The notes under the pieces were generated by a model. The model had not been told where the DNA came from. It saw nothing but the letters and a program-made list of their open reading frames with translations, and did not search any database. Below, one piece after another: positions 3 to 55,410 of a stretch of DNA of 64,000 nt. This stretch comes from Candidatus Sungiibacteriota bacterium. GTDB lineage: Bacteria; Patescibacteriota; Minisyncoccia; Sungbacterales; HO2-52-23. Each line of letters begins with the position of its first letter. Position 1 is the first letter of the stretch. Location of the stretch: NCBI GenBank assembly GCA_016180435.1, contig JACPBG010000002.1, forward strand, positions 60,342 to 124,341, in the 5' to 3' direction. A program made the translations under genes and the position numbers.

Positions 3-947
3 CCTAACCCGGATGTGATGTGTAACCGTCATATTAAGTTCGGGCTGTTTCTTAAACGTGCTCTGAAAGAGGGGGCGGATTTTATAGCGACCGGACACTA
101 TGTGCGCTTAAGCGCAAGAACTAAGAGCTTAGAACTTAGAACTAAGAAAAATCTGATGCTAAGTTCTAAGTCCTATATTCTAAGTTCTGCGGCCGATGCC
201 GCCAAGGACCAGTCCTATTTCCTTTGGACTCTTGCGCAAGACCAATTAAAACATTGTCTTTTTCCGATCGGGGAATACACTAAGCCCGCGGTACGGGAAA
301 TGGCGCGAAAATTCGGTTTGCCGGTTGCGGAAAAGCCGGATTCGCAAGGAGTGTGTTTTATCGGGGAATTTGACATGAAAGAATTTTTAAAAAAGCGGAT
401 TCCAGAATCGCGCGGACCGGTTGTGACAACCAGCGGCAAAAAAGTGGGGGAGCATGAGGGGCTTTCGTTTTATACCATTGGACAGCGACATGGGATGGGG
501 ATTGGGGGCCGCCCCGCAGAGCGGGGCGAGCCTCGCCCCAAAGGGGCGGGCGGGATTCCATATTATGTCGTGGCTAAGGATTTTAAAACCGACACGCTTA
601 TTGTCGGAGAGGGGCCTTATGACGAGAAATTATTCAAGAAAGAACTTATCGCCACAAATGTAAATTGGATTTTCGGGAAAGAGCCAAAATTACCTTTAAA
701 ATGCGAGGCGCGAATTAGGTATCGCCAGCCGTTACAACGCTGTCGCGTTGAAGCAAATAAAGAACTTAGAACTAAGAACTTAGAAAGAAAACTAAGTTCT
801 AAGTTCTATATGCTAAATGCTTGCCGCGTCAAAGTTATTTTTGATGCGGTACAACGCGCCGTAACTCCCGGCCAGTCAGTGGTATTTTATCAGGGAGATG
901 AAATGTTGGGGGGCGGAATTATTTACCCCGTTAGAGATGCGGAATAA
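3..947 (+). CDS. mnmA: tRNA-specific 2-thiouridylase MnmA, 5'-truncated by the window edge
   Basis: The frame is open from nt 3. It carries the motifs NPDVMCNRHIKF, ATGHY, KDQSYFL, GQRHGMGIGG and TPGQSVVFY. It contains four repeat-derived segments (see findings). Confidence 0.9.
   Translation, partial: PNPDVMCNRHIKFGLFLKRALKEGADFIATGHYVRLSARTKSLELRTKKNLMLSSKSYILSSAADAAKDQSYFLWTLAQDQLKHCLFPIGEYTKPAVREMARKFGLPVAEKPDSQGVCFIGEFDMKEFLKKRIPESRGPVVTTSGKKVGEHEGLSFYTIGQRHGMGIGGRPAERGEPRPKGAGGIPYYVVAKDFKTDTLIVGEGPYDEKLFKKELIATNVNWIFGKEPKLPLKCEARIRYRQPLQRCRVEANKELRTKNLERKLSSKFYMLNACRVKVIFDAVQRAVTPGQSVVFYQGDEMLGGGIIYPVRDAE
116..189. repeat. R1 heptamer palindrome (TTAGAAC)n ... (GTTCTAA)n, in-frame inside mnmA
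   Basis: The sequence is agcttagaacttagaactaag ... gctaagttctaagtcc..ctaagttct. Confidence 0.85.
508..557. repeat. R2 GC-rich palindromic element, in-frame inside mnmA
   Basis: gccgccccgcagagcggggcgagcctcgccccaaaggggcgggcgggattc. It is near-identical to 54571-54621. Confidence 0.85.
759..830. repeat. R1 heptamer palindrome, second in-frame copy inside mnmA
   Basis: agaacttagaactaagaacttagaa ... ctaagttctaagttcta. Confidence 0.85.
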
Positions 948-50948: not shown

Positions 50949-51800
50949 ATGATTATGGCATATATTTTTTTTGATCTTGGAGGCACTAAAACCCGGATAG
51001 CTATATCTTCCGACGGAAAACGGCTTGGGAAAGTTAAAGTTATACCAACACCGCGCGATGCGAAGAGCGGTATTACGGTTTTAAAATCGGTCGCGGAAGA
51101 GCTTGCGGCCGGAAAGAGAATCAAAGCGATCTGCGGGGGAATCGCCGGCTCTTTTGACCGAAGAAAATCGGTAATCGTGGGCGGGGGACCGAATATCAAG
51201 GGGTGGATGGGCGCGCATTTGAAAGAAAAATTTGAGAAAGCATTTCATGCGCCGGTGTATCTGGAAAATGATGCGGCTTTGGCGGGTTTGGGAGAGGTAA
51301 AATTCGGAGCGGGTCAAGGAAAAGAAATCGTTGCATATATTACGGTAAGCACGGGTTATGGCGGGGCTAAGATTATAAACGGAATTATTGATCCGCATGC
51401 CCGAGGATACGAACCCTCATATGAAATTGTGAATGCCATGGCGTATCGTAAAAGTTGGGATGATACGCGCCTTCGTATTTATCTTTCCGGCAGCGGCATA
51501 AAAAAACGTTTTCATAAAGACCCCGCATTAATAAAAAGCCGGGCTATACAAGACGAGTTGGCGTGCTGGCTTGCGGTTGCTTTGAATAACGTAATTGTGT
51601 TCTGGTCGCCGGATGTTATTGTGGTCGGAGGGTCGGTGATGAATATTATTCCTATGGCGCGTGTACGGGCGCATTTGGATAAAATCTATCAGCGCATCTT
51701 GCCTCCGCCGCCTATAAAAAAAGCCGCTTTAGGCGACCTTGGAGGGCTTTATGGCGCGCTTATATATCTGCAGCAGCAACGTATGAAGAAAAATTTGTAA
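50949..51800 (+). CDS. ROK-family sugar kinase
   Basis: FDLGGTKTRIA, YLENDAALAGLGE and VVGGSV. Confidence 0.75.
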   Translation: MIMAYIFFDLGGTKTRIAISSDGKRLGKVKVIPTPRDAKSGITVLKSVAEELAAGKRIKAICGGIAGSFDRRKSVIVGGGPNIKGWMGAHLKEKFEKAFHAPVYLENDAALAGLGEVKFGAGQGKEIVAYITVSTGYGGAKIINGIIDPHARGYEPSYEIVNAMAYRKSWDDTRLRIYLSGSGIKKRFHKDPALIKSRAIQDELACWLAVALNNVIVFWSPDVIVVGGSVMNIIPMARVRAHLDKIYQRILPPPPIKKAALGDLGGLYGALIYLQQQRMKKNL

Positions 51801-51829
51801 AAAAAGATAACCCGTGATATTTTATATAT

Positions 51830-52465
51830 ATGGCAGACACTAACTTTTCAAAAGGAGAATTAAAGAAAATACGCGCCACAGACGCACTTAAAAGAAAGAA
51901 ACTAAAGCGAATTATTTGGATTATCGCGGTTGTGGTTGTATTGGCGGGCGGAATCTATTGGATTGTGCGTTATAATAAAGAAAAAAAGGCGAACCTTCCG
52001 GGTATATTTTATACAGATGTGGGGCAAGACCATATTGGATTAAATGATGCGCCGCCCAAGCCCTATAGTTCCAATCCACCCTCATCCGGCGGGCACTACG
52101 GCCAGTGGGCCAATTGGGGCGTGTATGATTATGAAGTGAATGATAAGATATTTATGCATAACCTTGAGCATGGGGGAATTTGGATCGCGTACCGGCCGAC
52201 CGTATCACCGCCAATTATTGATGATTTGAAGGGAATCGTAAAAGAGTTCGGCGGATCAAAATTAGTTATGGCGCCGCGCTCGGCTAATGATGCGGATATC
52301 GCAATTGTATCGTGGGCCAGAGTTTTTAAATTTGATGTATCAGGGAAAAATTTGACCGATTCGGAAAAAGAGCAAATTCGCGCATTTTATCGGGGATTTA
52401 AAAATCGAGGTTTGGAATTTGTGCCCGACACCATGCCGGGAGTTGATCCGAAGAGTATTCAATAA
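51830..52465 (+). CDS. membrane-anchored DUF3105-like protein
   Basis: TM helix, then PPSSGGHY and HNLEHGGIWIAY. Family recall is from memory. Confidence 0.5.
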   Translation: MADTNFSKGELKKIRATDALKRKKLKRIIWIIAVVVVLAGGIYWIVRYNKEKKANLPGIFYTDVGQDHIGLNDAPPKPYSSNPPSSGGHYGQWANWGVYDYEVNDKIFMHNLEHGGIWIAYRPTVSPPIIDDLKGIVKEFGGSKLVMAPRSANDADIAIVSWARVFKFDVSGKNLTDSEKEQIRAFYRGFKNRGLEFVPDTMPGVDPKSIQ

Positions 52466-52553
52466 AAGCACTTAGAACTTAGAACTTAGAACTTAGAAAA
52501 ATAACTAAGATCTAAGTTCTTAATGCTAAGTTCTACGTTGCCGAGCAACGTTG
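52466..52553. repeat. R1 heptamer palindrome plus terminal mini-hairpin (upstream of trxB)
   Basis: agcacttagaacttagaacttagaacttagaa ... ctaagatctaagttcttaatgctaagttct-acgttgccgagcaacgt. Confidence 0.9.
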
Positions 52554-52637
52554 TTGTATGACGTTATCATCATCGGCGGCCCGCCCCGATTTCTGTCGGG
52601 GCGAGGCTCGCCCACAACCTTATGTTATATGATGTAA
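52554..52637 (+). pseudogene. relic 5' end of trxB (LYDVIIIGG...) disrupted by a GC-rich element
   Basis: TTG-TTG-tat-gac-gtt-atc-atc-atc-ggc-ggc runs into the R2-like ccgccccgatttctgtcggggcgaggctcgccc and stops at 52635-37. It is out of frame with the real trxB start at 52622. Confidence 0.6.
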
Positions 52638-53593
52638 TAGTGGTGGGCGGCGGACCGGCCGCAGTTGCGGCGGCGGTTTATTGCGCGCGCAAACGCCTAA
52701 AGACCGTATTGATTACCGAATCATTCGGCGGGCAATCTATTGTTTCGGATGATATTCAGAATTGGATCGGCGAGCCGCATATTTCCGGTTTTGATTTGGC
52801 TAAAAAATTTGAAGATCATGTGCGAACATATCCTGATGTGGTTGATATTAAGATGCCGGAAAGGGCGATGGAAGTAAAATCAATTAAATGTACGGACGAC
52901 ACCCGCAACTGCGATTTTCAGGTAAAAACCGAGCAAGGGAATATATATGAAGGAAAAGCGGTAATTCTTACTGCTGGCGCGAGCCGCCGAAAACTTGGCA
53001 TACCCGGAGAGGAAAGGTTAAACGGCAAAGGAGTGGCGTATTGTTCAACCTGTGATGCTCCGTTATTCTCCGGCAAAAAAGTCGCGGTGGTGGGTGGAGG
53101 AAATGCCGGGCTGGAAGCGGTGATTGATCTTTTCCCTTATGCCGAGGAAGTTTATCTGGTGGAATACGGGGAGGCATTGAAAGGCGATCCGGTTACGCAG
53201 GAGGAAATTAAGAAAAATCCGAAATTAAAAGCAGTTATTTTGAACGCGCAAACATTAGAAGTGCTCGGTGATAAATTCGTGGCCGGATTAAAATATAAGG
53301 ATCGCATAACCAATGAAGAAAAGATTTTGGAGGTTGACGGGATATTTGTTGAAATCGGCTCGGTTCCTAACTCCGAAATGGTTAAAGGTTTGGTGGACTT
53401 GGATAAATACGGGCAGGTGGTTATTGATTCCAAGCACGCCTCCACCTCGCATCCGGGAATTTTTGCCGCCGGAGACATTACGGATGATCCGTATAAGCAA
53501 AATAACATCTCGGCCGGGGATGCGGTAAAAGCCGCTTTGGGCGCGTATAATTATTTATTGCAGAGAAAAAAAGAGAGTCCGGCGAGCGAATAA
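52622..53593 (+). CDS. trxB: thioredoxin-disulfide reductase
   Basis: YDVIVVGGGPAAVAAAVY, the redox-active CSTCDA, VVGGGNAGLEA and AAGDITD. Confidence 0.9.
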   Translation: MLYDVIVVGGGPAAVAAAVYCARKRLKTVLITESFGGQSIVSDDIQNWIGEPHISGFDLAKKFEDHVRTYPDVVDIKMPERAMEVKSIKCTDDTRNCDFQVKTEQGNIYEGKAVILTAGASRRKLGIPGEERLNGKGVAYCSTCDAPLFSGKKVAVVGGGNAGLEAVIDLFPYAEEVYLVEYGEALKGDPVTQEEIKKNPKLKAVILNAQTLEVLGDKFVAGLKYKDRITNEEKILEVDGIFVEIGSVPNSEMVKGLVDLDKYGQVVIDSKHASTSHPGIFAAGDITDDPYKQNNISAGDAVKAALGAYNYLLQRKKESPASE

Positions 53594-53612
53594 AAAATGG
53601 CATCAAGTGATG

Positions 53613-53966
53613 TTATTGATGCCGTATAGCCTTTTTTATCATTCGTTTATATCGCCAATACATTTTTGGTAGCTCATGGATATTAAACCAGTTAGGAGAT
53701 AGTCCTACCCTTTTTTGTTTTTGCTTAAGTAGCCCGCCTATAATTCTTACGACAAAACAGAATTCCTGGTCAGTTACATGGTCCACCCTATTAGATGTTT
53801 TAACTATTAATTCGGTTTCTTCTGCAAATTCTCTACAAGTTGCTGCATTGGCGTCTTCCCCGATTTTTAATTTACCGCCGGGCGGCCTCCATGATCCATT
53901 TTCGTAAATGAGCAAAACGTATTTTTTTTCTTTATCAAGGCAGATTCCTCTCGAACTGTTTTTCAA
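53613..53966 (-). CDS. NUDIX hydrolase
   Basis: The Nudix box reads GGKLKIGEDANAATCREFAEETEL. Confidence 0.75.
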   Translation of the reverse strand: MKNSSRGICLDKEKKYVLLIYENGSWRPPGGKLKIGEDANAATCREFAEETELIVKTSNRVDHVTDQEFCFVVRIIGGLLKQKQKRVGLSPNWFNIHELPKMYWRYKRMIKKAIRHQ

Positions 53967-54015
53967 TCCGGTCTCCTAGATGAACTGATAATAATTTTAT
54001 CATATTCATTGATTT

Positions 54016-55410
54016 ATGTCAACATTCTTCGAAAACACTAAAAAATTTATTGAAGACGCCGTGCGTATCGCCTATATTCCGGGCGATATTTTAGGACGTT
54101 TGGAAAAACCGGATAAAGTATTAGAATTTGAAATTGCGGTTGGTGATAACCCCGTTAGAGACCCGATGCCTATGGCATCGGCAGACGCCGAAGGGCGTCT
54201 TGTCTCTAACGGGGCGAGAAAATTTCAAGCATGGCGTGTCCAACATAATAACATCCTTGGTCCTTACAAAGGTGGAATCCGCTATCATCCGGATTCAAAT
54301 TTGGATGAGGTAAAAGCGCTGGCCTCTTTGATGACTTTGAAAACCTCCCTTGCCGGGATTCTTTTTGGCGGAGCTAAAGGCGCGGTAAGAGTTGATCCGC
54401 GTAAATTATCCCTGCAGGAATTGGAAGAATTATCGCGCATGTACGTCCGTGCAATTTGGCAAGAAATCGGGCCGGAAAAAGATGTTCCGGCGCCGGATGT
54501 CGGCACTACCCCGCAAATTATGGATTGGATGACGGACGAATATTCGAAACTCATCGGAAAATTGAGTCCGGCCGCCCAGCAGAGTGGGGCGAGCCTCGCC
54601 CAAAATGGGCGGGCGGGATTCACTGGAAAATCTATAGAAAAAGGCGGTTCCCGCGGCCGCGATATTGCCACCGGTTTTGGCGGGTATGTAATTTTGAGAG
54701 AATTTTTAAATCTAAGTTCTAAGTTCTTAGTTCTAAGTTCTGAATCGCAACTAGTGGTTGCGATTCAAGGTTTCGGTAATGTCGGCGCAAATATCGCTAA
54801 AATCTTATATGAAAAAGGATTTAAAATCGTGGCCATTTCCGATTCCAAGGGGGCGCTTTATGAGGAAGATGGCATTGATATTAAAAAAGTTTTGGATGTA
54901 AAAGAAAAAACCGGCATTATAGATCGCAACAAGTGCTATGCGGTTTCCGAGGAGCGGCTGGCATCCGGTACTCCCTGTCGCGAATTTACCAACGATGATT
55001 TATTGCAAATGCCGGTGGATATTTTGATTCCGGCTGCGCTTGAAAATGTTATCAATGAAGCGAACGCGGAAAAAATTAGAGCTAAAGTAATTTTGGAAAT
55101 GGCCAATGGTCCGGTTACTCCCGAAGCTGAAAAAATATTCACTAAGCGAGGAATTGAGGTGCTACCTGATATTTTAGCCAATAGCGGGGGAGTGGTTGGA
55201 TCGTATTTTGAATGGGTGCAAAATCGTAAAGGAGAGCAATGGAGCGAGGAGGAGGTGCTTGCGAAAATTGATGAAAAATTGACCGAGGCGTTTCAGAGTG
55301 TACAAAAAATTAAGGAGGAATGCAATGTTTCGTGGCGTATGGCATCATACGTACGGGCGATTAAGAGGGTTGCGGAAGGGAATAAAAATCCGCCTTTTGG
55401 GGCGGTATAA
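54016..55410 (+). CDS. gdhA: Glu/Leu/Phe/Val-family glutamate dehydrogenase
   Basis: GPYKGGIRYHP, GGAKGAV, QGFGNVG and ANGPVTPEA. It contains three repeat-derived in-frame inserts. Confidence 0.9.
   Translation: MSTFFENTKKFIEDAVRIAYIPGDILGRLEKPDKVLEFEIAVGDNPVRDPMPMASADAEGRLVSNGARKFQAWRVQHNNILGPYKGGIRYHPDSNLDEVKALASLMTLKTSLAGILFGGAKGAVRVDPRKLSLQELEELSRMYVRAIWQEIGPEKDVPAPDVGTTPQIMDWMTDEYSKLIGKLSPAAQQSGASLAQNGRAGFTGKSIEKGGSRGRDIATGFGGYVILREFLNLSSKFLVLSSESQLVVAIQGFGNVGANIAKILYEKGFKIVAISDSKGALYEEDGIDIKKVLDVKEKTGIIDRNKCYAVSEERLASGTPCREFTNDDLLQMPVDILIPAALENVINEANAEKIRAKVILEMANGPVTPEAEKIFTKRGIEVLPDILANSGGVVGSYFEWVQNRKGEQWSEEEVLAKIDEKLTEAFQSVQKIKEECNVSWRMASYVRAIKRVAEGNKNPPFGAV
54150..54214. repeat. 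R7-type element in-frame inside gdhA
   Basis: CCCCGTTAGAGAC-ccgatgcctatggcatcgg-cagacgccgaagggcgtct-TGTCTCTAACGGGG. Confidence 0.8.
54571..54621. repeat. R2 GC-rich element in-frame inside gdhA
   Basis: gccgcccagcagagtggggcgagcctcgcccaaaatgggcgggcgggattc. Compare 508-557. Confidence 0.85.
54709..54766. repeat. R1 right arm plus terminal hairpin, in-frame inside gdhA
   Basis: aatctaagttctaagttcttagttctaagttct-GAATCGCAAC-tagt-GGTTGCGATTC. Confidence 0.8.

Follow-up and report, generated by a model that had tools for sequence, protein, structure and literature searches.

A duplicated gene start around a GC-rich palindromic element in an oxidoreductase gene of candidate phyla radiation bacteria

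The duplicated gene start

The window analysed here is a 64,000-nucleotide (nt) stretch of contig JACPBG010000002.1 from Candidatus Sungiibacteriota bacterium, a Parcubacteria/Sungbacteria-type bacterium of the candidate phyla radiation (CPR). In the window, the 5' end of the gene of a TrxR/AhpF-like flavin adenine dinucleotide (FAD)-dependent oxidoreductase is present twice, with a GC-rich palindromic element lying between the two copies (Table 1). Copy 1 is the displaced original 5' end and opens an upstream open reading frame (ORF); copy 2 is the working start, and its ATG is referred to as ATG2. Copy 2 runs straight into GGA CCG GCC (GPA) of the GxGxxG motif. The upstream ORF passes from copy 1 into CCGCCCCGATTTCTGTCGGGGCGAGGCTCGCCC and ends at a TAA stop at 52635-52637, 14-16 nt past ATG2. 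The offset from copy 1 to copy 2 is 71 nt, hence the two copies are in different reading frames.

Table 1. Coordinates of the features discussed in the text (positions within the window)
Feature	Position	Strand	Description
R1 heptamer-repeat hairpin, (AACTTAG)n arms	52466..52539	+	inverted repeat
Small hairpin ACGTTGC-CGA-GCAACGT	52535..52551	+	immediately 5' of copy 1; terminator-like match; folded
Copy 1, displaced original 5' end	52551..52580	+	TTG TTG TAT GAC GTT ATC ATC ATC GGC GGC = (M)LYDVIIIGG
Upstream ORF, 28 codons (MLYDVIIIGGPPRFLSGRGSPTTLCYMM*)	52551..52637	+	opened by copy 1; reads across the element
Helix I	52578..52608	+	52578-52586 (last copy-1 Gly codon and CCGCCC) pairs with 52599-52608 (GGGCG-A-GGCT)
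GC-rich palindromic element CCGCCCCGA-TTTCTG-TCGGGGCG-AG-G-CT-CGCCCAC	52581..52615	+	homologous to the elements at 11 other module loci
Helix II	52609..52649	+	CGCCCAC (52609-52615) pairs with GTGGGCG (52643-52649, Val-Gly-Gly codons of copy 2)
AT-rich spacer AACCTT	52616..52621	+	ahead of ATG2
Copy 2, working start	52622..52651	+	ATG TTA TAT GAT GTA ATA GTG GTG GGC GGC = MLYDVIVVGG
TrxR/AhpF-like FAD-dependent pyridine nucleotide-disulfide oxidoreductase	52622..53593	+	323 residues
Second family copy	506..560	+	in frame in the mnmA ORF (GIGG[RPAERGEPRPKGAG]GIPYYV); covariance model 32.8 bits
Third family copy	54577..54618	+	42 nt inserted in frame in gdh (SPAA[QQSGASLAQNGRAG]FTGK); ends accurate to within a few nt

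The original prediction had described this two-copy layout with its coordinates, its frames and eight differences in 27 nt, and all of these hold on re-reading of the sequence. Four of the differences are synonymous third-position changes and the other four fall within two Ile-to-Val codons. A repeat search of the window returned the copies as a 29-nt direct repeat with 72% identity, and a degenerate pattern coding for the peptide matches just copy 1 and copy 2 in the 64 kb (0.00 matches expected from shuffles). The assembly had been named as a point to check. Over 52472-52700, which covers the whole module, the window is matched without a difference by four Logan assemblies, each from a separate sequencing run, indicating that the duplication is no assembly artefact. 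Contigs of independent assemblies break inside the nearby R1 repeat and the region is repeat-rich; however, the same architecture with different sequences is found at 11 other loci from unrelated samples, so that a collapsed or chimeric repeat, or a sequencing error, is barely credible as an explanation.

A 100%-identical database protein (P0001) begins at ATG 52622. The oxidoreductase scores 271 bits against the NCBIfam model TRX_reduct (TIGR01292), below the equivalog cut-off of 343.45. Its best match is the C-terminal half of AhpF (340 bits, below the cut-off of 502.9), and it passes the Pfam model Pyr_redox_2. The earlier name trxB is thus approximate, and the protein is assigned as a TrxR/AhpF-like oxidoreductase. 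The lack of a Shine-Dalgarno (SD) sequence at copy 2, which had been pointed out as well, is real but unremarkable here, as an SD-like motif is found at just 12 of the 49 long ORFs of the window. A promoter scan of 52300-52800 found no sigma-70-like site. An Rfam scan of 51800-53700 at a permissive threshold left the module unmatched, giving just sub-threshold microRNA-like matches on the R1 hairpin, which probably marks the end of the upstream transcription unit.

Recurrence of the module and its element family

The arrangement is present at 12 distinct loci, which are referred to by number where needed. At these loci, copy 1 is followed by CCGCC..GGCGAG-S-CTCGCC, a short AT-rich spacer and an ATG with copy 2 (together the module). 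Copy 1 ends in GGN GGN, the spacer is 6-13 nt long, and copy 2 is continuous with the gene. Besides the window, 2 of 80 genome loci of relatives carry the module at the same codon (L023 and L063). A metagenome scan with a pattern of copy 1 followed by CCGCC, in which ATG2 was not required, returned 12 stretches, ten of them with the full architecture and representing eight distinct loci. The module of L103/L104, found in a sample chosen without reference to copy 1, brings the total to 12. In both the genome-locus and the metagenome search, the pattern held the second position of the copy-1 codons fixed, so that an intact copy 1 was required. The host proteins are 27-81% identical to one another and represent at least four FAD-oxidoreductase lineages of CPR bacteria. 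Several of these are TrxR/AhpF-like lineages; the host at L090 belongs to the unrelated aminoacetone-oxidase/HI0933 family. A scan of viral contigs for the element followed by copy 2 gave zero matches. Neither the module nor the element family turned up in the literature searched on CPR bacteria, and the arrangement appears to be undescribed.

The locus L090 (875-1155) has five tandem N-terminal copies and four near-identical elements, and the last copy alone continues into the gene. Copies 3 and 5 are identical together with their spacers, which, judged from the sequence, indicates a recent duplication of a unit by unequal exchange. A CRISPR-like or integron-like reading of the array was considered and rejected, as the 'spacers' would be near-identical and the 'repeats' diverged, and the core sites mismatch. 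The motif CCCACAAY ahead of ATG2 was rejected as a native 5'-untranslated motif. It is present in just 4 of 71 module-free genes and, because of this rarity, is assigned to the element. Longer homologues were checked for an in-frame fusion of copy 1, element and copy 2; none was found, and their extra length lies elsewhere. Among the homologues with N-termini that were read, none has an insertion between β1 and GGG.

The element is a member of a wider family. In the window, the hairpin CGCCCCGA/TCGGGGCG (52582-52603) occurs once, and the 15-nt palindrome GGGCGAG-S-CTCGCCC (core GGCGAG-NN-TCGCCC) has three sites, against 0.23 matches expected. A covariance model built free of copy 1 matches both other window copies, in mnmA and gdh, which are ~90% alike by eye. 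About 20 glutamate dehydrogenase orthologues from the fetched loci, including that of the closest relative L001, are missing exactly the 14 residues of the gdh insert, so that this copy is a true insertion. A further in-frame copy is found in an unrelated ORF of L036 (1790-1845), a Giovannonibacteria contig. In L026 (3975-4030), an element at the 3' end of an oxidoreductase homologue adds the C-terminal extension SEPRPAGRAAEK and adjoins AGTCCGGCCGCC, the same flank as in gdh. The family members are 42-50 nt long and have CCGCCC/GGGCGG-type arms, and no duplication is visible when the filled and empty gdh sites are compared. When all are read in the same orientation, the in-frame copies (mnmA, gdh, L036 and L026) lie directly 5' of GG(G)CGGC, which is the element's last arm. 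The modules abut GGNGG(C/G), and their last arm is the coding sequence of Val-Gly-Gly-Gly in copy 2. The loop of the last arm is 3-8 nt long in the in-frame copies vs. ~27-30 nt in the modules, where it comprises the spacer, ATG2 and the first codons of copy 2. On these sequence comparisons, the GC-rich part is assigned to a mobile repeat family.

Two further resemblances to the family were seen. At L106 (40-105), a degraded element is preceded on its upstream side by a long hairpin (arms CCCGCC/GGCGGG, loop ~37 nt), which is possibly another GC-rich family member. At L013, the C-terminal coding sequence of the upstream gene, GGGCCGGAATTCGTGCCATAA, resembles the centre and the 3' arm of the element (33 bits with the covariance model), probably by coincidence.

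Comparisons of close relatives showed that the module is gained or lost. The module is missing from the nearest relatives, which are L001 and L086 for the window gene (92% identical), L015 for L023 (88%) and L032 for L063 (84%). The original prediction had looked to relatives for an uninterrupted gene as a sign against the duplication. This expectation is borne out in part, as such a gene is present in L001 and L086, where it shows gain or loss of the module and not an artefact. Compared over 24 nt with the functional N-termini of module-free relatives, copy 1 of the window has one difference from L002 and three from L001. Copy 2 differs from the same N-termini at 7-8 of 24 nt and is 83-92% like copy 2 of the other module loci. 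The module-free relatives keep either start type: L001 and L002 resemble window copy 1, and L101, a close relative of L103, has a copy-2-type N-terminus, and the two have the distal AT-rich portion of the spacer in common. An earlier suggestion, recombination with a foreign allele carrying the element, survives insofar as a foreign-looking 5' end that travels with the element seems to be involved. The similarity of the cassettes and that of their hosts are uncorrelated (Spearman 0.04), in a comparison of low power owing to the invariance of most element positions. The most similar cassettes, those of L088 and L098, are 89% identical in hosts that are 55% identical. This mismatch fits either repeated spread or repeated loss.

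The gene order around the oxidoreductase is conserved. Over 51830-55410 of the window, it is a DUF3105 protein, the oxidoreductase, a small gene that varies and is encoded on the opposite strand (a NUDIX gene in the window) and glutamate dehydrogenase, and the same order is kept in L001, L063 and L085. Across L001-L080, the oxidoreductases are 65-92% identical in loci labelled Giovannoni-, Sung-, Niyogi-, Davies-, Uhr- and Wolfebacteria, and several third party annotation assemblies among them are labelled 'Saccharibacteria' or 'Gammaproteobacteria'. The identity across lineages suggests frequent gene transfer or unreliable bin labels. The homologues P0003, P0079 and P0119 have inserts of 10-20 residues, for example EPASAEASAGKAR and ENGVSENLPMLGKR, at one internal site (~...KC(T/V)... 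before CDF), which may be a second hotspot for small insertions in the oxidoreductase gene.

The R1 heptamer is a second repeat of the window, with 41 clustered matches against 0.28 expected. Its (AACTTAG)n hairpins are not just intergenic and also lie in frame within genes. Two repeats are located inside the mnmA ORF (15-947), at 119-186 and 763-805, and are translated as ...ARTKSLELRTKKNLMLSSKSYILSS... and ...NKELRTKNLERKLSSKFYMLN..., and one is located inside gdh, at 54712-54739 (...NLSSKFLVLSSES...). The MnmA of the window is ~50 residues longer than the family profile.

Helices, reading frames and the state of copy 1

Fourteen module units were aligned with MAFFT, and a consensus structure was folded with RNAalifold. 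The consensus contains two helices (Table 1). Helix II closes a 27-nt loop that holds the spacer and ATG2. A pair-count test showed that 96% of the cells are paired, compared with 37-52% when the partners were slid by 1-3 columns. Four pairs have double-sided changes (reached in 4 of 500 shuffles), with seven such cells (0 of 500). Compensatory changes from C:G to G:C link the last base of copy 1 to the central base S (pair 36:62) in L063, L091 and L092, and a change from C:G to U:A is found in helix II of L092 and of L090 unit 3. The last base of copy 2 obeys the same rule, and thus S and both flanking Gly codons covary three ways. S and the last base of the flanking Gly codons form C:G in 11 units and G:C in three. 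Internal guide pairing and hairpin stability explain this covariation equally well. Single-sequence folds reproduce both helices, with ATG2 mostly unpaired in the loop. The 3' arm of the element has an alternative pairing, with the end of copy 1 in the minimum free energy fold of the window or with the end of copy 2 in the consensus. Changes in L103 that are compatible with G·U pairs hint, from the sequence, that the pairing acts in RNA rather than in single-stranded DNA.

The conserved helices could point to a regulatory leader selected by the host, in which translation or stalling at the Gly-Gly-Pro-Pro codons would set the closure of helix II and tune a redox enzyme, the likeness to a repeat family being secondary. 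The compensatory changes, the ability of the 3' arm to pair with the end of either copy and the Gly-Gly-Pro-Pro read in every upstream ORF are what such a switch would show. The same can be said of copy 1, which has not diverged excessively from the functional N-termini of relatives, and of the upstream copies of L090, which were not selected by the search pattern, all keep their ATG and differ at codon positions 1 and 3 alone (10, 0 and 22 differences at positions 1, 2 and 3). However, the family copies in frame in mnmA, gdh, L036 and L026 stand in unrelated genes, where a leader role is impossible. Modules are few and scattered, at 2-3 of 80 orthologous loci; the nearest relatives manage without one, and decayed versions exist. 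The two enzyme families in question share no function beyond FAD binding, no ligand- or signal-sensing feature was identified, and Rfam gave no match. We therefore regard a leader as quite improbable.

The reading frames of the two copies follow a common rule. In none of the 12 loci are the copies spaced by a multiple of three ((2/3)^12 = 0.008), nor are the inner units of L090. A stop in the frame of copy 1 lies between -3 and +16 nt of ATG2 in all 12 loci, with three ATGA overlaps and a position of +2 to +4 in L103; as out-of-frame stops in AT-rich codons are expected by chance, these positions are weak evidence. ATG2 is present in every locus. A frameshift fusion of both frames was rejected, because no single shift would serve all loci, the spacing modulo 3 being either 1 or 2. 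A role as an SD sequence for the GAGG in the centre of the element was rejected as well. It is at least 15 nt away from ATG2 and takes part in helix I, and four loci have GAGC in its place.

A ribosome might also connect the copies by programmed bypassing, that is, by starting at copy 1, taking off at its last Gly codon, sliding over 61-71 nt and landing on the matching Gly codon of copy 2, which would make copy 1 the N-terminus of part of the protein pool. The original prediction had listed such a hop from GGC-GGC to GGC-GGC as its least likely option. The last Gly codons of both copies are identical in 10 of 12 loci (GGC/GGC in seven and GGG/GGG in three), and the GGC/GGT pair of L098 is readable by one tRNA; the penultimate Gly codon, by contrast, is unequal in 5 of 11. 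The take-off codon is located in the 5' side of a conserved stem (here helix I), as it is in T4 gene 60, and the insert is GC-rich and mobile like the mitochondrial byps (bioRxiv 10.1101/2022.08.31.505936). However, both codons pair with the central base of the element, which would produce the same codon match, and L103 has GGA vs. GGG. The codon after take-off is CCG in all loci, which is neither a stop nor rare or 'hungry' and is common for the P-loop Pro in the same genes. The nascent chain, 9-13 residues before the take-off codon, is too short for an exit-tunnel signal of the gene 60 type. Cognate GGC/GGG triplets lie in the gap ahead of the landing site, L011 is without any take-off copy, and the in-frame ATG that copy 2 always has makes a hop superfluous. 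Thus, bypassing is very unlikely.

The state of copy 1 differs between the loci. Its start codon is ATG in nine loci, TTG in two (the window and L093) and AAC in L097, where another ATG lies four codons upstream. Both genome loci with an intact element also have an intact copy 1. This speaks for upkeep of copy 1, as do the upstream copies of L090 and the few differences of window copy 1 from L002 and L001. The split of the differences between copy 1 and copy 2 over the codon positions (14, 0 and 48) was discarded as evidence for selection, because searches that fixed the second positions make it circular. Against upkeep, copy 1 of L103 has an Asp-to-Glu change, its last Gly codon is mismatched and the 3' arm of the element is mutated. 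L011 (1622-1696) has a degraded element (38.7 bits with the copy-1-free covariance model) and no recognisable copy 1, and L106 (60-150) has just a degraded 3' half of the element and likewise no recognisable copy 1. The oxidoreductase genes of both loci are apparently intact directly 3' of the degraded element, and the two are probably decayed modules. The third-position identity of the copies within loci is ~0.45, similar to that of unrelated homologues (L092 excepted), indicating that the copies are not recent duplicates of each other. This synonymous saturation fits neither a recent target duplication nor simple decay. The earlier argument that a decaying relic should not preserve its peptide in this way holds in so far as copy 1 looks unlike freely decaying DNA. 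The argument is weakened by the searches, which demanded an intact copy 1, and by L011 and L106.

On these observations, the module could also be an inert scar, left by a single or occasional recombination with a foreign allele or by slippage at the GC-rich hairpin, in which copy 1 and the element are idle and young scars are over-recognised. Besides the circular codon-position pattern, the erosion of start codons in the window, L093 and L097, the changes in L103 and the loss of copy 1 in L011 and L106 agree with this. The match of window copy 1 to the functional N-termini of relatives is also expected if copy 1 was functional until recently. A scar leaves unexplained, however, why homologous elements occupy one and the same codon in 12 loci from two enzyme families. 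Equally unaccounted for are the compensatory changes seen in each helix, the total avoidance of in-frame spacing and a five-unit array whose upstream copies all have an ATG and an open β1-like frame. Moreover, the elements diverge between loci as much as their hosts do and thus are not all young copies of one source. We consider a scar unlikely.

A proposed restart and its relation to known systems

The reading that we somewhat favour over its negation is that a mobile palindromic element came to lie in the P-loop codons of the Rossmann fold and was made harmless by a restart, with a new ATG and a duplicated β1. The element sits after codon 10, within the codons of the GxGxxG FAD-binding loop. 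In dinucleotide-binding folds, an in-frame insertion at this site would part strand β1 from the GxGxxG turn, and would, we infer, be lethal to function. The loop of the last element hairpin supplies the new ATG and a second set of β1 codons, joined to the remainder of the gene. The enzyme would then be made from ATG 52622, and the old start persists as the out-of-frame 28-codon upstream ORF. In the folded transcript, a GC-rich helix would hold shut the AT-rich loop in which ATG2 lies. A ribosome on the upstream ORF would probably cross both helices, open helix II and terminate beside ATG2, and such termination may promote initiation at ATG2 by translational coupling, through unfolding, reinitiation or both. 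The upstream ORF thus probably couples translation to ATG2, and direct initiation in the loop would also be possible. If the restart is true, the expected N-terminal peptide is MLYDVIVVGGGPAAV alone.

Several observations weigh against this reading. No transposase or nuclease was identified, although no search for a Y1 transposase or a RAYT was made, and no direct evidence was seen of a joint movement of the element and copy 2. The family members that lie in frame have no duplicate of their flanks, so that they do not account for the origin of the duplicate. The saturated third positions of the copies, the low power of the comparison of cassettes with hosts and the chance expectation for the stop positions point the same way. 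Coupling may also be dispensable, as copy 1 starts with TTG in the window and has lost its ATG in L097; L011 and L106, with no recognisable upstream ORF, argue that coupling is not obligatory.

Three candidates can be named for the source of the duplicate. By analogy with IS200/IS605, a transposed composite may have used the P-loop codons as a pseudo-end. By analogy with the T4 MobA cassette, break-repair homing may have been accompanied by co-conversion. Alternatively, an ancient in situ duplication may have been followed by differential loss. A bolder version of the restart is possible but doubtful. In this version, the module would be a self-compensating mobile cassette that targets the GGCGG(C/G) codons of the Rossmann loop by a guide-type central base, carries a spare start and β1, and moves from gene to gene and from lineage to lineage, either by single-strand transposition or by break-repair homing. 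The old start, left behind as an upstream ORF, would then drive re-initiation. If this version is true, introns, inteins and bypass elements would be joined by a fourth means by which a selfish insert can reside within an essential coding motif.

The restart, if true, would be a simple and previously unnoticed route by which a mobile element can enter one of biology's most conserved coding motifs without loss of the gene. Gene callers start at copy 2, which hides the duplicated structure. The GC-rich family and the R1 heptamers add peptide segments to CPR housekeeping proteins, which matters for annotating and modelling these proteomes. The module also lends itself as a natural system in which to test how starts are selected and re-initiation proceeds in bacteria with little use of SD sequences, and the covariation of the central base with its flanks provides a testable handle on the target choice of the element family.

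The proposed restart shares features with several known systems. Repetitive extragenic palindromic (REP) sequences are typically extragenic, and members of the IS200/IS605 family, which move by single-strand 'peel and paste' transposition, are not known to make a target duplication. The GC-rich hairpins of the present family and its insertion beside a short fixed sequence without duplication resemble the REP/RAYT and IS200/IS605 systems, and the likeness is one of resemblance only. IS608 finds its cleavage sites through base pairing with an internal element sequence (PMC3201880). However, the geometry of the putative guide in the module is not the same.

T4 gene 60 and MobA are examples of a mobile insert in an essential coding region that is neutralised in translation, MobA bringing new ORF ends to a split gene (bioRxiv 10.1101/2022.08.31.505936). 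Matched Gly codons at both ends and a hairpin containing the first one are common to gene 60, the byps and the module. In contrast, the module appears to rely on re-initiation at its duplicated start. Its insert neither contains nor adjoins an endonuclease gene, the first Gly codon is followed by neither a stop nor a hungry codon, and there is no long nascent-peptide signal.

Phage 21 and e14 in icd, like integrators in tRNA genes, carry a replacement end of the target gene and are 10-40 kb long. As in the module, the native end is displaced as a relic beside the element, and the functional copy differs mostly at synonymous positions. The module differs in its size of 60-70 nt, in replacing the 5' rather than the 3' end, in the lack of an integrase/att system and in arrays of up to five units. 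In the coupled pairs rpmI-rplT and MS2 coat-lysis, the upstream frame ends within a few nt of the downstream start, and this start is located in an inhibitory hairpin that the upstream ribosome has to unfold (PMC12548453). The stops of the modules are similarly close to ATG2, and helix II encloses ATG2 with its 5' arm inside the upstream ORF. However, the upstream 'gene' of the module is a relic of the downstream gene's own start, and L011 and L106 seem to do without it.

The window's own in-frame copies resemble intragenic repeats of the miniature inverted-repeat (MITE-like) kind, among them the Rickettsia palindromic elements (RPEs), which are short palindromic multicopy repeats of ~150 bp that insert in frame in coding genes and add a tolerated peptide; a duplicated start or 5' coding end is not mentioned for them in the review (PMC10969869). 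The mnmA and gdh copies of the window and those of L036 and L026 behave in the same way. Several related copies likewise occur in one genome, with presence/absence polymorphism at orthologous sites (gdh, and the module compared with L001 and L086). The present family differs in being GC-rich, 42-50 nt long and located in CPR bacteria, and its P-loop copy is out of frame (71-nt spacing) and accompanied by a second start and a duplicated 5' coding end. The module would thus be a new combination of known kinds, in which an RPE-like intragenic repeat is combined with an upstream-ORF restart.

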